Source: Desulfotalea psychrophila LSv54
GTDB lineage: Bacteria > Desulfobacterota > Desulfobulbia > Desulfobulbales > Desulfocapsaceae
DNA length: 32,000 bases
NCBI RefSeq assembly: GCF_000025945.1
Contig: NC_006138.1
Span: forward strand, 2,850,001-2,882,000
Direction of reading: 5' to 3'
The notes under the pieces are model-generated. The model worked only from the letters and a program-made list of their open reading frames with translations, made no database searches and had not been told where the DNA came from. The position numbers were made by a program, and so were the translations under genes. Numbering within the stretch: the stretch's first letter is position 1; every line of letters starts with the position of its first letter. Below are positions 3,768 to 24,606 of the stretch, piece by piece.

Positions 3768-3779
3768 GTGCCTGCACTT

Positions 3780-3854
3780 GGCCCCATCGTCTAGCGGTTA
3801 GGACGTTGGCCTCTCACGCCGAAAGCAGGGGTTCGATTCCCCTTGGGGTCACCA
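3780..3854 (+). tRNA. tRNA-Glu: tRNA-Glu (anticodon CTC), CCA encoded
   Basis: 75-nt cloverleaf. Acceptor GGCCCCA/TGGGGTC, anticodon stem TTGGC/GCCGA with loop CT-CTC-AC, T arm GGGGTTCGATTCCCC, and a 3' ACCA. Confidence 0.95.
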
Positions 3855-3863
3855 AGTTGAAAA

Positions 3864-3898
3864 GGGTTCTAGCAATTTAATTGCTAGAACCCTTTTTT
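3864..3898 (+). terminator. Intrinsic terminator of tRNA-Glu copy 1
   Basis: 12-13 bp perfect stem GGGTTCTAGCAA.../...TTGCTAGAACCC followed by TTTTTT. Confidence 0.8.
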
Positions 3899-7014: not shown

Positions 7015-8334
7015 TCACAGAACCGTACGTACGGGCCTCGTATACGGCTCCTGTTTACTTACATCCCTATCTGGGACAAGAATTCCGGTTTTCACAGCTG
7101 ATACATCAAACAGCCAAAGCTCTTTGTGTAAATAACAGCTCGGCAGTGCATAATGGGCAAGAGGACAGGCAGAGTTCGCCCATGAGTTCATCTTAATAAA
7201 TTTGAACTCTCCCTTATACCCTAGTTGGCGTAATCGCCGGTGTAACTTACCGGCCTTCTTCCAGAGCTTTAACTGGATTGCACGGAGACGTCTCCGTAAC
7301 CAACTAGACACAGCCTTTAACATGTTTTTACAATTTGCTATCCTAAAATAGAAAGCAAAACCGCGTAGAATAGGATTCAAGCCATCAATGACTGCTTCCA
7401 AATTCTTTCCACCATTTCGACGAGTCAACGCCTTCACCTTCTCCTTGAACGACCTGATTTTCGCCTTTTGGATACGAGTGTACTTAGAGTGTATTGAAAC
7501 ACCAAGGAAAGCCACTCCGCTCCGACTATGGCAAATGTGAGTCTTTTCGAGGTTTACAGTGAGTAGCAACCCTTTCTCAAGGAAACAGCTTGCCTGTAAA
7601 AGTGCGTTTTTGGCTGCGCTTTTCGAACTGCACAAAATCAGGATATCATCGGCATAGCGCACTATCCTATGACCTCGTTCTCTCATAAACTGGTCAAACT
7701 GATCAAGATAGATATTGGCAATTAGCGGACTAATCACACCGCCCTGCGGACTACCAACTTCGCTTGCCTGCCATCCTTCGTCTGTCATCACTCCACTTTT
7801 CAGAATTTTCTGAAGTAGCCCAAGTATTGATCCATCCTTGATTCGCCTCGATATAGAGGACAAGATCAAATCGTGGTCTAAGGTGTCAAAGCATTTCGAC
7901 AGATCCATGTCCACAACCCACTTCCTATCATATTTCCGTATGAACATCGTAGCTTTAGTAATCGCCTGATGGCAACTTCGCCCCGGGCGATAGCCGTAGC
8001 TTGATGGATGAAAGCCGGGATCAAATATCGGCTGTAGAATATCCAGCAGAGCCTGCTGTACTACACGGTCACGAACTGCAGGAATTCCGAGCAACCTTAC
8101 CCCGCCATTCGTTTTGGGAATTTCCACCCTACGAACAGGTTGAGGTTGGTAGCTCTTCTCACGCAGTTCCGTCAGAAGCCGGTCAAGATTGATATCAAGG
8201 GATTCAACAAAATCTTTGACGGACTGGCCATCTATACCGGCAGCTCCATTCGCAGACTTTACCTTAAAAAACGCTGAGCGCAATGCACTTCGGCTCAACA
8301 GTCTCCCATATAAACTATACCAAATCTTTACCAT
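7015..8334 (-). CDS. Group II intron reverse transcriptase/maturase (intron-encoded protein)
   Basis: 439-aa ORF with RT motifs (GIDGQS, RRVEIPKTNGGVRLLGIP, DRVVQQAL, DLSKCFDTLDH, SPQGGVISPLIANIYL, RYADDILIL) and a maturase/X region. No HNH/En motifs at the C-terminus. Confidence 0.95.
   Translation of the reverse strand: MVKIWYSLYGRLLSRSALRSAFFKVKSANGAAGIDGQSVKDFVESLDINLDRLLTELREKSYQPQPVRRVEIPKTNGGVRLLGIPAVRDRVVQQALLDILQPIFDPGFHPSSYGYRPGRSCHQAITKATMFIRKYDRKWVVDMDLSKCFDTLDHDLILSSISRRIKDGSILGLLQKILKSGVMTDEGWQASEVGSPQGGVISPLIANIYLDQFDQFMRERGHRIVRYADDILILCSSKSAAKNALLQASCFLEKGLLLTVNLEKTHICHSRSGVAFLGVSIHSKYTRIQKAKIRSFKEKVKALTRRNGGKNLEAVIDGLNPILRGFAFYFRIANCKNMLKAVSSWLRRRLRAIQLKLWKKAGKLHRRLRQLGYKGEFKFIKMNSWANSACPLAHYALPSCYLHKELWLFDVSAVKTGILVPDRDVSKQEPYTRPVRTVL
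7020..7050 (-). ncRNA. Group II intron domain V (catalytic hairpin)
   Basis: The minus strand reads GAGCCGTATACGAGGCCCGTACGTACGGTTC. This matches the conserved DV consensus (GAGCCGUAU...ACGUACGGUUC). Domain VI follows at about 6972-7016 with a bulged branch-point A. Confidence 0.85.
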
Positions 8335-9114
8335 TTCCTGCCTTGTGGCCTCTATCCCCTACAAATTCTTTCTAGGCACCGATTCTTCACATGAGCAGTA
8401 TCGCCTTCTAGCCCTTCGGCAATGTACGATTCCACATTCACGTTACTCCGATGAGCGGCCAAAATCAGCAGACTACCTGTTACAGTCAACCACCGAAAAA
8501 GTGCCCTGTTCCGTCGAACAACTTGTGCTCTGCCTAAAAAGTATTGCAAGTCTTCAAGGTCTCTTTAAATAAACTTCACCCCTTCGCAACTGATATGGCT
8601 TTTGGCACATAACAGTCCCCAACCATCAAAGGTCGGGTCATCCTGGTTTTACCCTCCACACTGTTACCAGCTTTCACAGGCCTGGACTTAATAACTACTA
8701 CGGGATCATCTGCCATCTCACAAAGCTTCGCTTCTGCTCAGGTCACCCCTTGCCATCAGCTATCCTGTAAAAAATTCTAGGAACTCTATAAGACTTCCCC
8801 GGTTAAGGCGAACTCCCTGTGAGCAATCGCATCCTCAAACACGATACGGGACTGACCAAGTATTGGGCTTTACGCTATTTTGCACGTTTACCCTCCCGCA
8901 TCGCCGAATCAGGTTCGCTTGCGCTATGTACCACTCACTTCCTATCGCTTCCTTTAGACCCTGCCGTTACCAACAACGCCCTTACGATTCGGATTGTCTT
9001 CCCCTTGGTCGGGGTGACGCCTGCTTACCGCAGGCTGGGTTTGCCCGCCATGCCGGGCAAACAAAACAGCAGCGGACAGGAGGCCTGCCCACTGCAAAAA
9101 GATTGCAAGAGGGG

Positions 9115-14355: not shown

Positions 14356-14612
14356 TACATATCTCCTATTGAAAATAATTTTCACGGATTACCCCTGAGG
14401 ATAATTACTAAAAAAAAGAAAAAGTTCACAGAGGGGAGATTTAATACGTATCGAGCCACAAATCTAACAGGAAATACCTATGGCGCACAGCCCTACTATA
14501 GGAAATACAAATTACTATAATTACTGATTTTTTTACAGAGGAGAGAAATGATGACTCTGGCTGGTCTGGTGCTGAAAAGACCAGACCAGCCAGAGGGCGA
14601 ACAAAACTGCTC

Positions 14613-14688
14613 TTAGCCTATGGGCAGAACGGTTCTTTCAAACTGCTCATTAATAATCTCTGCCATGGCAAGATAGATGGCTCTCGCT
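14613..14688 (-). pseudogene. Remnant of the C-terminal 24 codons plus stop of a second satP/yaaH-like gene
   Basis: 76 nt align at roughly 85-90% identity (by eye) with the 3' end of the intact satP gene at 19374-19449. It would encode ARAIYLAMAEIINEQFERTVLPIG*. An in-frame TGA lies upstream and there is no start codon. Confidence 0.75.
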
Positions 14689-14833: not shown

Positions 14834-16292
14834 TTATTGACCTAGAATAGCAGGTATACCTGGAAGCTGACCAACAAGAGCCAGCGATCCAACACAGATA
14901 ACAAACGCAATCCCTGGGATAATCAGTCTATCTTTGAGAGAAAGTTCACTTGCACGTTCATGGTCACCAATGAGTCCCATATTATCAAGAAGCATAGTAG
15001 TTGCCCAACCAAAAACAGGGTTAACAATGGCACAAGCAAAGATACAGATACCAGCACTAAGGGAATCTTTTTGCTTATTTACCATTTGCATACCAGCTTC
15101 AAGAAGTGGCAAGAAAACACCAACTATGAGAGCTACGCGGAGTACAGGTTCCCACATCGCAAGATCCATCGGATATCCAGTAACAGAGGCAACAACACAG
15201 AGTAGACCTGTAAGAAGTGCACCACCCGGAATAGGGCGCTTAGCAATTGCTGCAGGGATCATATAGGTTCCCCAAGACGAAGCAAGGTTACCACCACCAA
15301 GAACTGAACCAACACCTTGACGAACAGAAGCAATAGTCATGGTATCATCAACATCCATCAATACGCCTTCGGCATCTTTTTGGGTAGTTAAGTTCTTGGA
15401 AAACACGATGGCCGAGATAATCAGGAGACCACATTGCAACGGCAAGCAAAGCAAAAGGAGTTACCGCAATAAATTGGTTAAGATTAGGCCATCCAAGCTG
15501 CCAACCAGTAGTTTCGCCCCACCAGTAAAGTGGACTCATGTGTGGAAGACCTGGAGTTGTAGTAAAATGAAACTCTGCACCAAGTGCAAAAGCAACAACA
15601 CCAGCAATAATAGAACAAACAGGAATTGCAACCCAACGAAGTTTAAGCTTAGCAAGATATGCATAAATCAAAAGGGTAATTCCAATTACAGCAAATGAAA
15701 TATAACCCTGGTCTGTTGAAGCAGCCCAGGCTTCAAGTTTACCAATTTGGCCAATAAGACCAACAGCACCCAGATAAATCAAGAGCCCGCCACGAACACC
15801 AACACCAGTCAGCGTCATTAGCTTAGAGCCACCCTTCGTAAAGGCGAGTATCAGTCCAAAAAATGCCACCATTAAACCGAGAGACAAGGGGTGCCCACCT
15901 GCTGCTGCAATCAGAGGGATGAGCGGAATCATCGGCCCATGGGTCCCCGCAAGATTGGCATTCGGCATAAGAAGAGCAGAAAAGAGAATAACAAAAAGTG
16001 CCCCTATGAGAAGCTCCCAGCGTACGTTCTCGGCAACAAAAGCGGCATCTAAACCATACTCTGTTGCAAAAACAGCTACCATAGCGGTAACCATAACAAC
16101 CTTTCCGATTGTTGCCGCAAGTGCAGGAACCCAATCTTCCAGCTCCACTCCCCAATCACGGATAGGAAGGTTAAATCTCCAACGCTTAAAGCTCATGATT
16201 TTAAGTTCATGATCCAGATACTCAGATCTTTTCTCAAACTCATGGGCTTTTTTGCGCATATCTTTGTAAAACTTTTTTTCCTCTTTAGCCAT
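14834..16292 (-). pseudogene. Putative polytopic permease (NCS2/SulP-like; family uncertain), reading frame broken once
   Basis: ORFs 15348-16292 and 14834-15454 are both highly hydrophobic and overlap in different frames. Joining them at the A5 run (T5 at 15377-15381 on +) gives one roughly 485-aa protein reading ...FQELNYPK|DAEGVLMDVDD... Confidence 0.75.
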
Positions 16293-16501
16293 CTACACTC
16301 TACTCCATTTTAATAAAATTTTGAAAAATTCACTCTTTCAGTTAATGGTGCGTTTATAGGAGAGGTGAAAAACAGTTTGCAAACACTACAAGGCGATAGT
16401 AATTATTTAAGTTGCAACTATATAGACCACGCTTCCTAACGCTCTTTGTTTTTTCTAACGAACAGAGCTACAAGAATATACTCAACCTATTAGTTTAATT
16501 T

Positions 16502-19084
16502 ATGAAAATATCAGATCATGCAGACCACACAGAAAAACTTTTCGGAATTCGCGGAGAAGACATCCATAAATGGATGGATGGCTTCTTCGAACATGATGGC
16601 GTTGATCATTATTTACGTAACAATGGCAAGATAGCAGATTACAACCCATATGATCATCGAAAATTTCGCCATTGTCAAGAAGTTTTGGCAGAGGCTTATG
16701 ACGAATTTACGGGGATATACGAGAAGCGGGATATAAAAAATATTTTCGAAACTCATATCAAGGATGATTATAACGGATATATTCCGACTAGAAATGACTT
16801 TGAAAACAGTATGTTTACCGAAAAATATCATGATTCTTTGCACCAAGATAATTGGAATCCAATCCTAGATTCAGAAGAATTATCTGACTACTTCGAAGGA
16901 GTAAAAAATTATGACGAATATAAAAGGCCAAATCATTTTATAACCACTTTCGGGATGCGTATTGTTATCCCAACAGTGGTTGCTATTATCCTCTTTGTGA
17001 CATCTATCTTCTTTGTTGTGGTTCCAGTTATTGAAACCTCTATAATGAACCAAAAGCGAAAGATGATCAAAGAGTTAACCGTTTCAGCCATCTCAATTGC
17101 CGAGCAGTATATTTCCTTAAGTAAAAATGCTGTACTTTCTGAAAAAGATGCACAGAAACGCGCTGCAAAAGAGATCGAATCAATGCGCTATGGTGATCAA
17201 CATAAAGATTATTTCTTTATAACTGATATGACACCTAGGATGATTATGCATCCATACCGTCAAGAATTGATTGGCACAAATTTAAACGACTATACGGATA
17301 CAGAAAACAAGAGTGGAAAGCGTCTCTTTGTCGAGCTTGTCGACTTGGTTAAAAAAAATCACGAGGGATATCTTGAATATCAGTGGCAATGGAAAGATGA
17401 CAGTAGCACATCAGTCCCGAAACTTTCTTATGTGCGTGGAATTCCAGAGTGGGGATGGGTTGTTGGAACTGGTGTATATATAAATGATGTAAAAGAAGAG
17501 ATAGCACGCCTTAAAAGACATCTATATATCACTTTTCTGATCATTACTTTTGGACTAATTTTGGTGATGAGCTATATCATTTACCAAAGCCACAATATCG
17601 AGGCTAGAAAGAAAAAAGCTGAAATTCTTCTACATGAAGCAAAGGATCGATACAGAGCTCTCGTTGAAACTTCAAATGAGGGTTACATATTGGAAGCTGA
17701 AGGAAAGATTATATATTCCAATCAGAGGCTTATACGAATGATTGGTTATAGTGAACGAGAGCTTCATGACCATACTATTTGGAGTACCCTGTTTCCACAA
17801 AAACCTCTTAACATGCCTGTATTACAACATTTAATTAGCATATTCCATGGAGCAGCAGAACCTGCAGAGTTTGAGGCACAGTTATTGACCAAAGACGGAC
17901 AAGAGATTGATATTATTTTAAGTACTTCAAAAATATTTTTATCTGAAAAAAAGGGGCACGTTATATCTTTTCGCCCTATAACGAGAAAAATCTATAGTGG
18001 AGCTATCCCTTTTGAGAAAGATGTTACTAACTACAGGGGACTTACCAGTGAAGTTGTACGCCTGATTGAAGAAAGTGAAACAGCAGGCAGTGTTGTAGAG
18101 GCACTCAACAGAATGCCAAACTTGATTAGAACAATGATTGATGCGGGATCTAGACCAGGTAATCTACGTCGTGTAATTGGTGGTGCTTATGACGCAGCTA
18201 TCACCAAATTTATAGAGCTTTCAATAGAAGAATTAGGAAATCCACCTGTAGAATTTTCCTTTATGTCAATGGGATCAAATGCACGTCATGATATGACTCT
18301 TTTCTCTGACCAAGATAATGCAATTGTTTTTGAAGACTGCGCTGTAGGTGATCTCAAGAAAATACGACGATATTTTTTACACCTTGCCGAGCGAGTGTGT
18401 AAAAGACTGGACCAAGCAGGCTACTCATACTGTGATGGCTGGATTATGGCTACTAATCCACAATGGTGCTTGAGCATGACTGAGTGGAAGAAAAACTTTA
18501 CCCATTGGATCATAAACTCTAGTCCCGATGCCATATTAGAAGCCAATGTTTTTTTTGATGTGCGCTCCACCTATGGCACAGCAAAATTGGTTGATCAGTT
18601 ACAACAACACGTCTTTGAAACAAACAGAAAGCACGAGCAATTTTTTGTAAACTATGCCAAAAATTGCCTCTCCTACGCCCAACCACTTAATACAAAGGGA
18701 CAAATTAAGACACAGGTAAATGATGGGGTCCGCTCTGTGAACCTCAAAGAGTGCCTGAGGCCGATGGAAATTTTTTGTAGAATTTATGCTCTTAAGTATG
18801 ACATTCGCGAAGCTAATACTATTACTCGACTTAAAAAATTGGCGCAAAGGGGAGATATATCAAGAAAAGAATATCGTGAGATGGTCTATATTTTTGACCA
18901 TATCTGGAATTTGCGATTTATGAATCAAATCATAGAATACACTGATTTAAGAAGGGTTAATGACTCTCTGGACCTTGATGAGTTACCGCAAATAGAGCAA
19001 GAAAATCTTAAAAATGTGTTAGCGAGAATCTCTATTTTCCGGGACAAGGTGAGTAGGGATTTTCTTGAAGGTCCTCAAAATTAG
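16502..19084 (+). CDS. Membrane sensor protein: N-terminal His-rich domain, TM, single Cache domain, TM, PAS, DUF294 nucleotidyltransferase plus DUF294_C
   Basis: 860-aa ORF. TM segments at about aa 146-177 and 341-361 bracket a Cache-like domain (MRYGD..DYFFI.D....IMHP....IG.NL........G......L......EGYLEYQW........PKLSYV..IPEWGWVVGTGVYI). A PAS-like region covers aa ~380-495. The NTase motif is MGSNARHDMTLFSDQDN (aa 589-606). The helical C-terminal domain is typical of DUF294_C. Confidence 0.85.
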   Translation: MKISDHADHTEKLFGIRGEDIHKWMDGFFEHDGVDHYLRNNGKIADYNPYDHRKFRHCQEVLAEAYDEFTGIYEKRDIKNIFETHIKDDYNGYIPTRNDFENSMFTEKYHDSLHQDNWNPILDSEELSDYFEGVKNYDEYKRPNHFITTFGMRIVIPTVVAIILFVTSIFFVVVPVIETSIMNQKRKMIKELTVSAISIAEQYISLSKNAVLSEKDAQKRAAKEIESMRYGDQHKDYFFITDMTPRMIMHPYRQELIGTNLNDYTDTENKSGKRLFVELVDLVKKNHEGYLEYQWQWKDDSSTSVPKLSYVRGIPEWGWVVGTGVYINDVKEEIARLKRHLYITFLIITFGLILVMSYIIYQSHNIEARKKKAEILLHEAKDRYRALVETSNEGYILEAEGKIIYSNQRLIRMIGYSERELHDHTIWSTLFPQKPLNMPVLQHLISIFHGAAEPAEFEAQLLTKDGQEIDIILSTSKIFLSEKKGHVISFRPITRKIYSGAIPFEKDVTNYRGLTSEVVRLIEESETAGSVVEALNRMPNLIRTMIDAGSRPGNLRRVIGGAYDAAITKFIELSIEELGNPPVEFSFMSMGSNARHDMTLFSDQDNAIVFEDCAVGDLKKIRRYFLHLAERVCKRLDQAGYSYCDGWIMATNPQWCLSMTEWKKNFTHWIINSSPDAILEANVFFDVRSTYGTAKLVDQLQQHVFETNRKHEQFFVNYAKNCLSYAQPLNTKGQIKTQVNDGVRSVNLKECLRPMEIFCRIYALKYDIREANTITRLKKLAQRGDISRKEYREMVYIFDHIWNLRFMNQIIEYTDLRRVNDSLDLDELPQIEQENLKNVLARISIFRDKVSRDFLEGPQN

Positions 19085-19373
19085 CAAGGTGGTAGAAGAG
19101 ATCCTCCCATTCATCAACGCATTTAAAAATAGAATAGCCCTTTTTTAACTGCTGGCCCGCTGGAATTGTATCCCAGTGATCTCCTGTCTTGCAGGCAGAT
19201 AAACTTGCGGGAAATGAGACAGGGTACGCAGACAAAAAAGGGGATGCCCACAGGCACCAGGAGACACAACTCCTAGCTACAGTAAAATCCCCAGAAGGGG
19301 GAGAGAAGGAGAGAGGGGAAGCTCTGGACAGCCTGGTGCTGAAGGCACCAGGCTGCGCAAAGGGGACAACTGA

Positions 19374-19931
19374 TTAACCTATGGGCAAAACGGTTCTGCC
19401 ATACTGCTCATTAATAACCTCTGCCATGGCAAGATAAATGGCACTCGCTCCACAGACAATTCCTTCCCAACCGGCAATATGACCAAGGGCCACAGAACCG
19501 GTCCAGTTATGGGCCGCAAGCAGAAAAAAGAGTACGGTCAGGGAGAAAAATATAAATTGCAGAACACGGTTGCTCTTAAGAGAAGCAATGAACATAAAAA
19601 AGGTGAAAATACCCCAGAGAGCCAGATACCAGCCCATAAATGCATGGGGAGTACTCTCTGTAATACCAAGCTTTGGCATAATAATAAGGGCCACAAGGGT
19701 GAGCCAAAAATGACCATAGGAGATAAAGGCCGTCATGCCAAAGGTGTTGCCCTTACGGAACTCCAGGATACCGGCGATAATCTGTGCTATACCACCATAG
19801 AGCAGCCCCATGGCCAAAATCATAGCGCTTATCGGGAAAAATCCCGCGTTATGGATATTCAACAAAACCGTGGTCATACCAAAGCCCATCAGGCCAAGCG
19901 GTCCTGGATTTGCAAGCTTATATTCCGTCAT
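19374..19931 (-). CDS. satP: Succinate-acetate/proton symporter, GPR1/FUN34/YaaH family
   Basis: 185-aa, six-TM protein with the family signature (ANPGPLGL.GFG.TT..LN, EF..GNTFG.TAF.SYG.FW). Confidence 0.93.
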   Translation of the reverse strand: MTEYKLANPGPLGLMGFGMTTVLLNIHNAGFFPISAMILAMGLLYGGIAQIIAGILEFRKGNTFGMTAFISYGHFWLTLVALIIMPKLGITESTPHAFMGWYLALWGIFTFFMFIASLKSNRVLQFIFFSLTVLFFLLAAHNWTGSVALGHIAGWEGIVCGASAIYLAMAEVINEQYGRTVLPIG

Positions 19932-20248: not shown

Positions 20249-21829
20249 CTACCACTCGCAGATATTTGTGGCGATTCTATTTCGGCCAAGCCTCTTGGCC
20301 CTATAAAGGGCCTTATCAGCGGCCGCGACGAGTAGACTTGAATCCATTCCACTCTTGGGAATGCAGGTGGATACACCCGCACTAATTGTTACCACATTGC
20401 TGGTTGGGGAAAAGGCATGAGCTATCTGCAGATCCTCTATCGCCCGACGACAATCTTCAGCCACCGAGGCAGCATCGGTGGTATTGAGCAGTACAAGAGA
20501 AAATTCTTCCCCGCCATACCTGGCGACAAGATCAGTTGAACGATGAGGGATCTTCCGAAGCTGCTCTGCAACTTTTTTCAAACACTCGTCTCCGGTAAGA
20601 TGACCATAATTGTCGTTATATAATTTAAAATTATCAATATCTGCCATGATAAAGGAGATGGACGATTTTTCCCGCATCGCCCGTGCCCACTCCCGGGATA
20701 GAAAATTATCCATGGTCCTTCTATTAAAAACCCCAGTCAAACCATCCGAAGACGATACCAGCTTGAGTTTTCGATTTACCTCCTGTAACTCATTTTTTTT
20801 CTCCAATAATTTTTCTTGGGTTAAAACCGATTTTTTCACAATTGCCCTAAGAACAAAAGCAACAACGCTAGTAAAAATAATACCAAAGACAAAAATAAGC
20901 TGAGAAGAAAAGCCCCTTCTCCTCTCGACATACAAAACGGTGGGGAACGCCTCCAAACACCACTGCCTCCCCAAAATTACAGGCATTTTTTTTTGATAAA
21001 AAGCACTCTGCTGGAGGACAAAAACATTTCGAGGATCGCGACTATAAAGAGTTTCAGTGCTTACAGGTGAGGTGATATCGACAAGCTTCAGCTTTATACC
21101 TGCAAGATCTTCAGTTAAATGGGAGCTGACTAAGATATCGTCTATTTGATAAACACCAACCACAAAACCAAACAGAGCCTGCCGTCGCCTGACTACCGTT
21201 GTCGGATTTCCCTTATAAACAGGCAAGAGGCTAACCACACCTCTCTGGACATTACCCTCTTGAACAAAGTCAACGGGCGCAGTTACCTGAAGAAGGTCCT
21301 CATCCATAGCTCTTCTGAGGGCTGGCATAAGAGGACTGGCGGCAAGATCAAAGCCGAGGCGATCACTGTTACCCGGTACAGGCTCAATATAAAACACAGG
21401 GAGGGCCTCCCCTCTTGCCCCTTCCGTATCTATTGCCTCACCTGTACCTGATTTCTCATTATCTGAAAAATACGCCCCCACCTCAAACAGAGACACACCA
21501 CCACGATCCCTCGCCGTACGCGGTATCCAACCAAGGGCATGAATACCCGGATAATCTACCAGCAATCGCCTCGCCTCGTTATTAAAGCGATCATAACTGG
21601 GAACTATCTCCCCATTATTATACAAGGTAAGCAAAGACTGGGACGCCTCAAAATTTTTTAAAGCCTCATGATATATTTCAATGGCAAGCCTATTTACACT
21701 CTGCTGAAATTCATTAACTATCACCTTTTCTTCAGCATCATAAAGCAACCAGGATGTCCAGCCCGACAGACAAATGCCACCTAGCAAAATAAACGCCAAA
21801 AGAAAATTTAAACTTGTGTGAGATTTCAT
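20249..21829 (-). CDS. CHASE-domain diguanylate cyclase (GGDEF)
   Basis: 526-aa ORF. Signal anchor, a periplasmic CHASE-like region (GIHALGWIPR..., FYIEPV.GN....GFDL), a second TM, a coiled coil, then GGDEF (DGLTGVFNRR, DIDNFKLYNDNYGH..GD, RYGGEEF). GGAGGAAGG RBS. Confidence 0.92.
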   Translation of the reverse strand: MKSHTSLNFLLAFILLGGICLSGWTSWLLYDAEEKVIVNEFQQSVNRLAIEIYHEALKNFEASQSLLTLYNNGEIVPSYDRFNNEARRLLVDYPGIHALGWIPRTARDRGGVSLFEVGAYFSDNEKSGTGEAIDTEGARGEALPVFYIEPVPGNSDRLGFDLAASPLMPALRRAMDEDLLQVTAPVDFVQEGNVQRGVVSLLPVYKGNPTTVVRRRQALFGFVVGVYQIDDILVSSHLTEDLAGIKLKLVDITSPVSTETLYSRDPRNVFVLQQSAFYQKKMPVILGRQWCLEAFPTVLYVERRRGFSSQLIFVFGIIFTSVVAFVLRAIVKKSVLTQEKLLEKKNELQEVNRKLKLVSSSDGLTGVFNRRTMDNFLSREWARAMREKSSISFIMADIDNFKLYNDNYGHLTGDECLKKVAEQLRKIPHRSTDLVARYGGEEFSLVLLNTTDAASVAEDCRRAIEDLQIAHAFSPTSNVVTISAGVSTCIPKSGMDSSLLVAAADKALYRAKRLGRNRIATNICEW

Positions 21830-24471: not shown

Positions 24472-24485
24472 CGTCCTCAGCACTT

Positions 24486-24560
24486 GGCCCCATCGTCTAG
24501 CGGTTAGGACGTTGGCCTCTCACGCCGAAAGCAGGGGTTCGATTCCCCTTGGGGTCACCA
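24486..24560 (+). tRNA. tRNA-Glu: tRNA-Glu (anticodon CTC), second identical copy
   Basis: 75 nt identical to 3780-3854. The 6 nt upstream (CACTTG) are also shared. Confidence 0.95.
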
Positions 24561-24570
24561 AGATACTAAA

Positions 24571-24606
24571 GGGACTTAGCAATTAACTTGTTAAGTCCCT
24601 TTTTTT
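24571..24606 (+). terminator. Intrinsic terminator of tRNA-Glu copy 2
   Basis: Stem GGGACTTAGCAA / TTGTTAAGTCCC (one G-U pair) followed by a T7 run. Confidence 0.8.

Follow-up and report, generated by a model that had tools for sequence, protein, structure and literature searches.

DUF294 nucleotidyltransferases (NTases) are widespread and have been predicted to act as signalling enzymes since 1999; to our knowledge, no member has a known substrate. Among the nearest described counterparts are the soluble COG2905 proteins, in which a cyclic nucleotide (cNMP) binding domain and a CBS pair are combined with the DUF294 and DUF294_C domains, as in Pflu5625 of P. fluorescens and in the Sama_1525 and Psest_0349 clusters. 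These are tied to monocarboxylate uptake, since a COG2905 gene is cofit with a lactate/D-alanine symporter of the DUF4212 plus SSS type and was speculated to be needed for symporter expression (Price et al., 10.1101/072470), while the CrbS/R acetate regulon includes, alongside acs and actP, a gene for a soluble cAMP-binding/CBS/NTase (DUF294) protein (PMC5715377). The subject of the present analysis is a membrane-bound variant, DP2518 of Desulfotalea psychrophila LSv54 (CAG37247.1, WP_011189759.1, Q6AK79), located within a stretch of 32,000 nucleotides (nt) of contig NC_006138.1 (positions 2,850,001 to 2,882,000), referred to below as the window. DP2518 is composed of an N-terminal domain, a first transmembrane segment (TM1), a periplasmic sCache_2 domain, a second transmembrane segment (TM2), a PAS domain, DUF294 and DUF294_C, in that order. 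It shares with the soluble proteins the DUF294 and DUF294_C module and the catalytic motif, and in some of its relatives a CBS pair is retained between PAS and DUF294. It differs in that its input is extracytoplasmic (two transmembrane segments and sCache_2, followed by PAS) rather than provided by cytoplasmic cNMP and CBS domains, neither of which is matched in the Pfam scan of DP2518, CBS being found in relatives only. Furthermore, an obligatory DUF6915 domain is present and the commonest neighbouring gene encodes a DUF3360 protein.

The reading preferred here, with a probability of roughly 0.55, is that a carboxylate outside the cell acts through TM2 and PAS on a GlnE/DrrA-like NTase which, together with DUF6915, modifies a protein tied to carboxylate uptake. 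As a one-component transmembrane receptor, DP2518 would bind a C2/C3 monocarboxylate (acetate, propionate, glycolate, pyruvate or lactate) in its periplasmic sCache_2 pocket, relay the signal through TM2 and the cytoplasmic PAS domain, and switch a GlnE/GlnD/DrrA-type NTase (DUF294 and DUF294_C) that would add a nucleoside monophosphate (NMP) to a protein or take it off. DUF6915, a small helical domain with a probably metal-binding His/Asp core, would be the partner of this module, fused N-terminally here and elsewhere specified by a downstream gene of its own; like the HD domain of GlnD, it may be an NMP-removing or accessory partner, or else it may be the acceptor. The output would be control of the uptake or use of small carboxylates via DUF3360, SSF symporters with DUF485 or DUF4212 subunits, and SatP. 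A broader and more tentative proposal, which we consider possible but on balance unlikely, is that DP2518 is the prototype of a receptor class converting an extracellular metabolite into protein nucleotidylylation, with DUF6915 as the NMP-removing enzyme or a PII-like acceptor and with carboxylate transporters (DUF3360, ActP-like SSS, SatP) gated post-translationally.

The membrane-bound variant is unusually tractable, because its pocket is the same as that of acetate, propionate and pyruvate sensors, because DUF6915 is fused or adjacent, and because DUF3360, ActP-like symporters or SatP adjoin it; a predicted ligand class, a partner and a physiological target area are thus offered together. 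This makes a long-standing unknown enzyme family, kin to the sensor-coupled GlnD/GlnE-like NTases, experimentally approachable, and solving DP2518 would probably give functions to three domains of unknown function. If the broader proposal is true, these would be the first functions for DUF294, DUF6915 and DUF3360, and a further transmembrane signalling currency would be added to phosphorylation, methylation and cyclic nucleotides. Desulfotalea excretes and consumes fermentation acids, and post-translational tuning of fermentation-acid uptake in marine and anaerobic bacteria could be revealed. The DP2518 sequence and its family are already in databases, so no new sequence is reported; the carboxylate-pocket match, the AMPylase-fold match, the DUF6915-DUF294 module, the cross-phylum transporter linkage and the insertion scar described below are believed to be new.

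All domains that a preliminary description had named in this open reading frame (ORF), namely Cache, PAS, DUF294 and DUF294_C, score far above the Pfam cut-offs, and the G-S...D-x-D motif that it had pointed out, with MGSNARHDMTLFSDQDN, is present. The two transmembrane helices placed on either side of Cache are likewise borne out. Two hydrophobic segments flank the domain, with basic residues on their cytoplasmic sides, so the Cache domain lies outside the cell and the N-terminal, PAS and NTase parts are cytoplasmic. A homolog search with DP2518 returned 1189 matches, of which the best 120 are all full-length proteins of about 850–930 residues that cover the N-terminus, with 99–100% query coverage and the same domain set. 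Hundreds of full-length homologs span about 10 phyla, with representatives in Vibrio, Aliivibrio, Agarivorans, Corallincola, Fibrobacterales, Desulfobacter, Kiritimatiellia (Pontiella), Verrucomicrobiota, Planctomycetota, Cloacimonadota, Spirochaetales and others, while Desulfobacter also holds Cache-PAS-CBS-DUF294 paralogs without the N-terminal domain. The earlier statement that this signalling logic is uncharacterised stands. The architecture is common and RefSeq already annotates DP2518 as a 'DUF294 nucleotidyltransferase-like domain-containing protein', with no further function named; a literature search, in which most text matches to 'DUF294' were in fact to DUF2946, found no functional study of DP2518, of proteins combining Cache with an NTase, or of DUF294, DUF6915 or DUF3360.

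The strongest single inference of the analysis concerns the ligand. The nearest entries to the DP2518 Cache domain in the PDB are 4K08 (E 1e-24), 5G4Y/5G4Z (5G4Y, E 1e-23), 2QHK and 4EXO, all of them chemoreceptor sensor domains, and the crystal ligands of 4K08, 5G4Y, 2QHK and 4EXO are acetate, propionate or pyruvate. Binding of acetate, glycolate, propionate and pyruvate has been shown for PscD (5G4Y/Z), and Adeh_3718 (4K08) was crystallised with acetate and a Vibrio parahaemolyticus domain with pyruvate; seven residues of PscD contact the ligand, Y90, W92, H103, F126, Y143, W145 and K156 (Brewster et al., PMC5062169). Transferred through a HMMER alignment, these correspond in DP2518 to Y237, F239, H250, F276, Y293, W295 and K307, respectively, so that 6 of the 7 contacts are the same as in PscD and Adeh_3718, both sensors of C2/C3 carboxylates. 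The six identical residues are conserved in 100% of 121 homologs, while the seventh position, a conservative exchange, is F or W across the homologs (W in 48 of 121). The NCBIfam equivalog that DP2518 resembles most is MctS (E 9e-25), a sensor kinase of monocarboxylate transport. With a pocket identical to that of PscD at six contacts and invariant in the family, the ligand of DP2518 is most likely a C2/C3 carboxylate, in line with the small acid previously suggested. It stays a prediction, as identical Cache pockets may differ in affinity (Brewster et al., PMC5062169). PscD, McpP, Adeh_3718 and MctS have in common with DP2518 an sCache_2 domain held in the periplasm between two transmembrane helices, but in DP2518 the output is an NTase instead of a methyl-accepting chemotaxis protein (MCP) signalling domain or a histidine kinase.

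Residues 520–860, the output module, are clearly placed in DUF294/DUF294_C by profile searches. DUF294 (PF03445) is matched at 153.7 bits against a cut-off of 21, over profile positions 2–137 of 138, and DUF294_C (PF10335) at 109.3 bits against 22.5, over positions 2–145 of 145, with the catalytic Asp residues aligned. The Pol-beta NTase signature (G591, S592, D603, D605 and D686) is conserved in 121 of 121 homologs, and because of this invariance the NTase of DP2518 is predicted to be catalytically intact and not a dead domain. In sequence searches against the PDB, with both the single sequence and a profile, nothing significant was retrieved by the output module, and membership of the GlnE/GlnD sequence families received no significant profile match (NF010707, E 0.069), PF08335 being weak and found in relatives of DP2518 only. 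An AlphaFold2 (AF2) model of residues 516–860 (predicted local distance difference test, pLDDT, 87; predicted template-modelling score, pTM, 0.85) was compared by Foldseek, giving significant matches to four chains only: DrrA/SidM in complex with Rab8a (6yx5, E 6e-9), two chains of the adenylylating half of GlnE (AT-C, 3k7d, E 4e-7) and the deadenylylating half of GlnE (AT-N, 1v4a, E 5e-7, TM-score 0.70). Across the four, E ranges from 6e-9 to 1e-6 and TM-score from 0.63 to 0.70, at a probability of 1.00 and a sequence identity of 11–14%; beyond the DrrA and GlnE chains no match had E < 1e-3. DrrA and the GlnE halves all add AMP to, or take AMP off, a protein tyrosine. DP2518 accordingly shares with GlnE, GlnD and Legionella DrrA/SidM the fold of the NTase plus helical domain and a G-S/G...S-D-x-D motif, and it may share with them the principle of a sensor controlling reversible NMP transfer, the GlnD NTase being joined to a metal-dependent removing domain. 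It differs from all three in its low identity, in lacking ACT and HD domains, and in being membrane-embedded with an extracellular sensor. The earlier proposal that a periplasmic ligand controls GlnD/GlnE-like nucleotidyl transfer is strengthened, as a prediction, by the AMPylase-only fold match taken together with the identity of the pocket.

The N-terminal domain had been described as assignable to no family. Residues 1–150 indeed give no above-threshold match in Pfam or NCBIfam; however, PF21866 (DUF6915) is matched below threshold and nearly over its full length (21.6–22.9 bits against a cut-off of 27; E 1e-4 to 2.4e-4; positions 3–99 of 102). The same family is assigned in several full-length homologs of DP2518, a profile built from the N-terminal domain retrieves proteins that themselves pass the PF21866 cut-off (P0155, P0164, P0166), and 20 of 24 aligned domain members match DUF6915. 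On these profile grounds the N-terminus is taken to be a divergent DUF6915 member. The first ~112 residues form the best-conserved stretch of DP2518-type proteins, with an invariant core of H6, H22-x3-D26, R53-x3-H57 and H85-x3-D89 across 24 diverse members and the 121 receptor homologs; one element of this core falls on each of the four main helices in the AF2 model (pLDDT 74), and the residue following H57 is C, H or D in the family. This pattern suggests a predicted metal site. Neither a single nor a broader profile of the domain found anything significant in the PDB by sequence, Foldseek with the model gave no match with E < 1 in the PDB or in BFVD (viral folds), and in a permissive Pfam scan of the 24 members no second family recurs. 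An HD-like or hemerythrin-like identity, hinted at by the H/HxxxD pattern, found no support and is not claimed.

An exhaustive profile search collected 90 representative proteins, which include stand-alone DUF6915 proteins of ~90–120 residues and a few other fusions, and it is the genomic position of the stand-alone genes that links them to DUF294. Those encoding P0142, P0146, P0148 and P0152 lie 0–30 nt downstream of (PAS)-CBS-DUF294 genes; in P0142, P0146 and P0152 the gene overlaps, or lies 4 nt past, the stop codon of a gene for a soluble PAS-CBS-DUF294-DUF294_C protein of ~700 residues, and in P0148 it follows an ORF ending in DUF294_C. The P0153 gene overlaps the stop of an sCache_2-PAS-CBS-DUF294 gene, the architecture of DP2518 with DUF6915 split off. 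Altogether, a close stand-alone DUF6915 gene is directly downstream of a DUF294 gene in 5 of 6 informative cases, the gene for P0150 showing no such linkage and P0143 being left out of the count because its contig is too short. From this arrangement it follows that DUF6915 and DUF294 are, as far as gene order can tell, a two-part module that occurs fused or split, which is the key new finding of the analysis. The partner can possibly also act in trans. Desulfobacter loci L035, L038, L040 and L045 each hold three Cache-DUF294 receptor genes around one DUF3360 gene (L035 with an extra soluble CBS-DUF294 gene), and since one receptor of each trio carries N-terminal DUF6915 and the two sCache_2-PAS-CBS-DUF294 receptors lack it, DUF6915 is suggested to serve its paralogs.

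A comparable arrangement is found in the MNT-HEPN toxin-antitoxin pair, in which a minimal NTase AMPylates a small helical partner. There, too, the NTase gene is followed immediately by a gene for a small all-helical protein, as in the split DUF294/DUF6915 pairs, and DUF294_C has been classed with HEPN-related C-terminal domains of NTases (PMC3710099). DUF6915, on the other hand, has no detectable HEPN similarity, the NTase of DP2518 is a large sensor protein, and its context is transport rather than toxin-antitoxin. Candidate roles for DUF6915 are nucleotide removal, nucleotide acceptance and metal or redox sensing. Its more distant members occur in unrelated gene contexts, and because the His and Asp residues are broadly conserved outside DUF294 contexts, the pattern speaks for a metal-dependent activity of the domain itself rather than for passive acceptance.

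The context of the receptor genes was surveyed by clustering ORFs from 80 reference-genome loci. A gene for a DUF3360 membrane protein adjoins the sensor gene in 41 loci, the two being divergent in every pair-bearing locus of Vibrionaceae, Corallincola, Alginatibacterium and Fibrobacterales, and pointing the same way in Desulfobacter. An SSF symporter is the neighbour in 20 loci (Verrucomicrobiota, Kiritimatiellia, Victivallales, Cloacimonadota and others), accompanied by a DUF485 (YjcH-like) or DUF4212 small subunit and sometimes by an OprD-type porin, while satP is found near the sensor gene in four loci and near the DUF3360-sensor cassette in L010, L040 and L045. This linkage to transporters agrees with the symporter cofitness of COG2905 and with the membership of soluble DUF294 in the CrbS/R regulon. 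In D. psychrophila, the flanking of DP2518 by two carboxylate or solute transporter genes, as first described, is correct for satP, but DUF3360 is not a proven carboxylate transporter.

Several points weigh against the preferred reading. Protein nucleotidylylation by DUF294 proteins is proposed from fold, and metal binding by DUF6915 from a pattern of conservation; DUF6915 could not be related to HD, hemerythrin or any fold of solved structure. DUF3360 has no PDB relative in a sequence search (a DUF3360 profile was abandoned, its members being too similar to add sensitivity), and its gene is frameshifted in D. psychrophila, so that, short of a sequencing error, the function of the system may be impaired in this genome. 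About 17 of 78 loci have none of the listed transporters nearby, many of those contigs being short, and in the 80 loci there is no conserved third gene that could supply a PII-like soluble target. Finally, the cofit gene is given as 'COG2905 (RNAse T domain protein)', leaving its identity within the cluster ambiguous (Price et al., 10.1101/072470).

That same label, suggestive of an exonuclease that partners the soluble systems, bears on a different chemistry, in which the NTase would tail RNA or otherwise act on nucleic acid, or would make a small nucleotide messenger, with DUF6915 as the metal-dependent enzyme that degrades the product. RNA-tailing and messenger-forming enzymes are indeed found in the Pol-beta NTase superfamily, of which DUF294 is a member, and the invariant His/Asp core of DUF6915 would suit a hydrolase. 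The more distant Foldseek matches also include kanamycin NTase (ANT) and TUTase, although at E > 0.02 and a TM-score of 0.21–0.33, against 6e-9 to 1e-6 for the protein AMPylases, the sole significant structural matches. The helical domain at the C-terminus is one of the 'substrate-binding' kind known from GlnE and GlnD (PMC3710099), and no exonuclease gene recurs in the 80 loci. A structured RNA does precede DUF3360 in Vibrionaceae, yet it was found neither in the window nor in Fibrobacterales or Desulfobacter, all of which keep the gene pair. Nucleic-acid or messenger chemistry is hence considered unlikely, and protein nucleotidylylation is favoured on the modelled fold, because only protein AMPylases match it significantly and the NTases directed at RNA or antibiotics match far worse.

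The RNA in question accounts for the strongly conserved word found in the intergenic regions of other loci. It is ~94 nt long and located in the 5' leader of DUF3360, ~95–100 nt upstream of the start codon, occurring once per locus in 33 loci of Vibrionaceae, Corallincola and Alginatibacterium (for example L016 7681–7774, L002 7610–7708 and L017 7670–7772, all on the minus strand). Besides an invariant core, GGUAGCGUCUGGGAUGUCGUCUCGUA, it contains two hairpins, one of them 9 bp long with a GAA loop, together with a closing stem. Of all cells in the alignment, 98.3% are paired; compensatory changes are seen at 17 of 27 pairs, 0 of 500 shuffles do as well, and slid controls come to 35–49%. As would be the case in a translational switch, the upstream hairpin has a pyrimidine-rich 5' strand that seems able to pair with the ribosome-binding region. 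No family of Rfam 15 is matched, and the Vibrionaceae DUF3360 leader is regarded as a candidate new riboswitch or leader. In the window, a covariance-model search with filters off reached a best score of 7.3 bits. Separately, a word resembling TGGCGCACACTTT(T)TG stands ~60–90 nt before the sensor start in several Vibrionaceae (L017, L019, L006) and is a possible promoter of the sigma-54 type; the word is missing from the window, where promoter and terminator scans gave counts not above the shuffled expectation.

The divergent arrangement of the pair brings to mind a membrane-tethered regulator of the ToxR/CadC type, with DUF6915 binding the DUF3360 promoter and the Cache, PAS and NTase parts only modulating it. 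The topology of a cytoplasmic N-terminal domain, a transmembrane segment and a periplasmic sensor fits, divergent adjacency with DUF3360 is strict in at least 36 loci, the N-terminal domain contains a basic HRKFRH motif, and the speculated need of COG2905 for symporter expression (Price et al., 10.1101/072470) would agree. Against this, the profile scans found no helix-turn-helix or other DNA-binding family, no operator-like motif is common to the 209-nt intergenic region of the window and its counterparts in other taxa, both genes point the same way in Desulfobacter, and in other phyla a different transporter is the neighbour. The five invariant His and two invariant Asp residues point to a metal site rather than a DNA-reading surface, and where DUF6915 is encoded on its own, its gene accompanies a soluble DUF294 gene and not a transporter promoter. 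A ToxR/CadC-type role is therefore very doubtful.

The origin of the locus in D. psychrophila was considered in turn. The G+C content of DP2518 is 0.376, which lies 0.092 below the 0.468 of the remaining window sequence, confirming that it is AT-richer than its surroundings. Because the median gene-minus-flank difference in 57 other genomes is only -0.009, the AT-richness is specific to D. psychrophila and not a family property. Identity of DP2518 is highest with Fibrobacterales (66–68%), followed by gammaproteobacterial homologs (57–64%) and Desulfobacter (about 50%), and the DUF3360 partner follows the same trend. In addition, a 150-nt direct repeat (76.7% identity, blastn E 7e-27, with a 76-nt core at 89%) encloses exactly the DUF3360-DP2518 pair. 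Its copy B is part of the intact satP locus, whereas copy A, on the far side of DUF3360, comprises the last 24 SatP codons (ARAIYLAMAEIINEQFERTVLPIG*), with 20 of 24 residues identical (tblastn, 83% over 24 residues). The order satP(-), DUF3360(-), sensor(+) seen with copy A is also that of Vibrio locus L010. The repeat is read as the scar of a recombination event that brought in a satP-linked cassette, and the pair looks like a laterally acquired cassette in D. psychrophila; the foreign origin suspected from base composition thus gains far stronger grounds in the genome-specific G+C deficit combined with the satP duplication. The broken permease previously noted beside DP2518 is the DUF3360 protein, split by a single frameshift in an A5 run (minus strand) at 15377–15381 where A4 would restore the frame; tblastn against an intact ortholog shows a single change of frame and otherwise 79–84% identity. 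The cause is either a mutation of very recent date or a sequencing error in the homopolymer, and DUF3360 is likewise split into two ORFs in the Vibrio variabilis locus L026.

The frameshift, the G+C deficit and the satP-derived repeat could together be taken to mean that the locus is a decaying, recently acquired cassette without current function in D. psychrophila, with the AT-rich sensor gene as a passenger. DP2518 nevertheless is a full-length open frame that keeps every family-invariant residue, the defect in DUF3360 amounts to one homopolymer base in an otherwise conserved coding sequence, and an intact homolog of 92% identity occurs in another sample (P0001), making decay an improbable account. 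The older annotation of DP2518 as 'related to methyl-accepting chemotaxis protein A' (COG0840), carried by its UniProt and eggNOG names and traceable to a Cache domain whose nearest relatives are chemoreceptor sensor domains, is rejected, as the similarity to chemoreceptors is limited to the sensor domain, the Pfam scan gives no MCPsignal match, and solely PAS, DUF294 and DUF294_C follow TM2.

Table 1. Features of the DP2518 locus, in window coordinates (strand. where none applies).
Feature	Position	Strand	Evidence or remark
Repeat copy A, satP 3'-end remnant and downstream region	14539..14688	-	far side of DUF3360; blastn, tblastn
DUF3360 gene, divergent partner, two ORFs	14834..16292	-	Pfam E 4e-148 and 6e-99 for the halves
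Divergent intergenic region, 209 nt	16293..16501	.	without Vibrionaceae leader RNA
DP2518 gene, 860-residue transmembrane sensor nucleotidyltransferase	16502..19084	+	ORF, exact-sequence look-up, domain matches
N-terminal cytoplasmic DUF6915-type domain, residues 1-112, predicted all-helical	16502..16837	+	PF21866 sub-threshold; AF2 pLDDT 74
TM1, residues ~153-177	16958..17032	+	hydropathy window; basic residues ahead
Periplasmic sCache_2, residues 182-336	17045..17509	+	Pfam E 9e-38, 130 bits vs cut-off 25
TM2, residues ~340-362	17519..17587	+	hydropathy; RKKK then follows
Cytoplasmic PAS domain, residues 379-496	17636..17989	+	profile searches place PAS at residues 383-496; TIGR00229 E 4.7e-14; Pfam PAS_9 (residues 393-494) E 6e-8
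DUF294 nucleotidyltransferase core, residues 537-675	18110..18526	+	Pfam E 3.5e-45
Catalytic G591-S592...D603-x-D605	18272-18316	+	within DUF294 match
Invariant D686	18557-18559	+	just downstream of DUF294 match
DUF294_C helical 'substrate-binding' domain, residues 713-854	18638..19063	+	Pfam E 1.9e-31
Repeat copy B, 3' end of intact satP and downstream region	19307..19449	-	repeat search, blastn
satP, acetate/succinate uptake channel, convergent with DP2518	19374..19931	-	NF007941 E 1e-91; Pfam PF01184

Just past satP lies a gene for a CHASE-GGDEF diguanylate cyclase (20249–21829, minus strand; GGDEF E 1.6e-48, CHASE E 2.5e-33), and a related EAL/GGDEF protein (cluster c21) neighbours the sensor gene in three Vibrio loci. 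On a larger scale, two tRNA-Glu(CTC) genes with identical Rfam scores are contained in a 125-nt direct repeat (84%) at 3774–3898 and 24480–24604, 20.7 kb apart. This repeat encloses a group II intron, HGD-type dehydratase genes and the DUF3360-DP2518-satP-GGDEF cluster, and it may represent the borders of an island or simply a tRNA duplication. The intron ORF (7015–8334, minus strand) contains RVT_1 (E 3e-40) and GIIM (E 3e-21) domains, with an intron D1-D4 RNA match (RF02001, 69 bits) upstream of it at 8808–8976 (minus strand).

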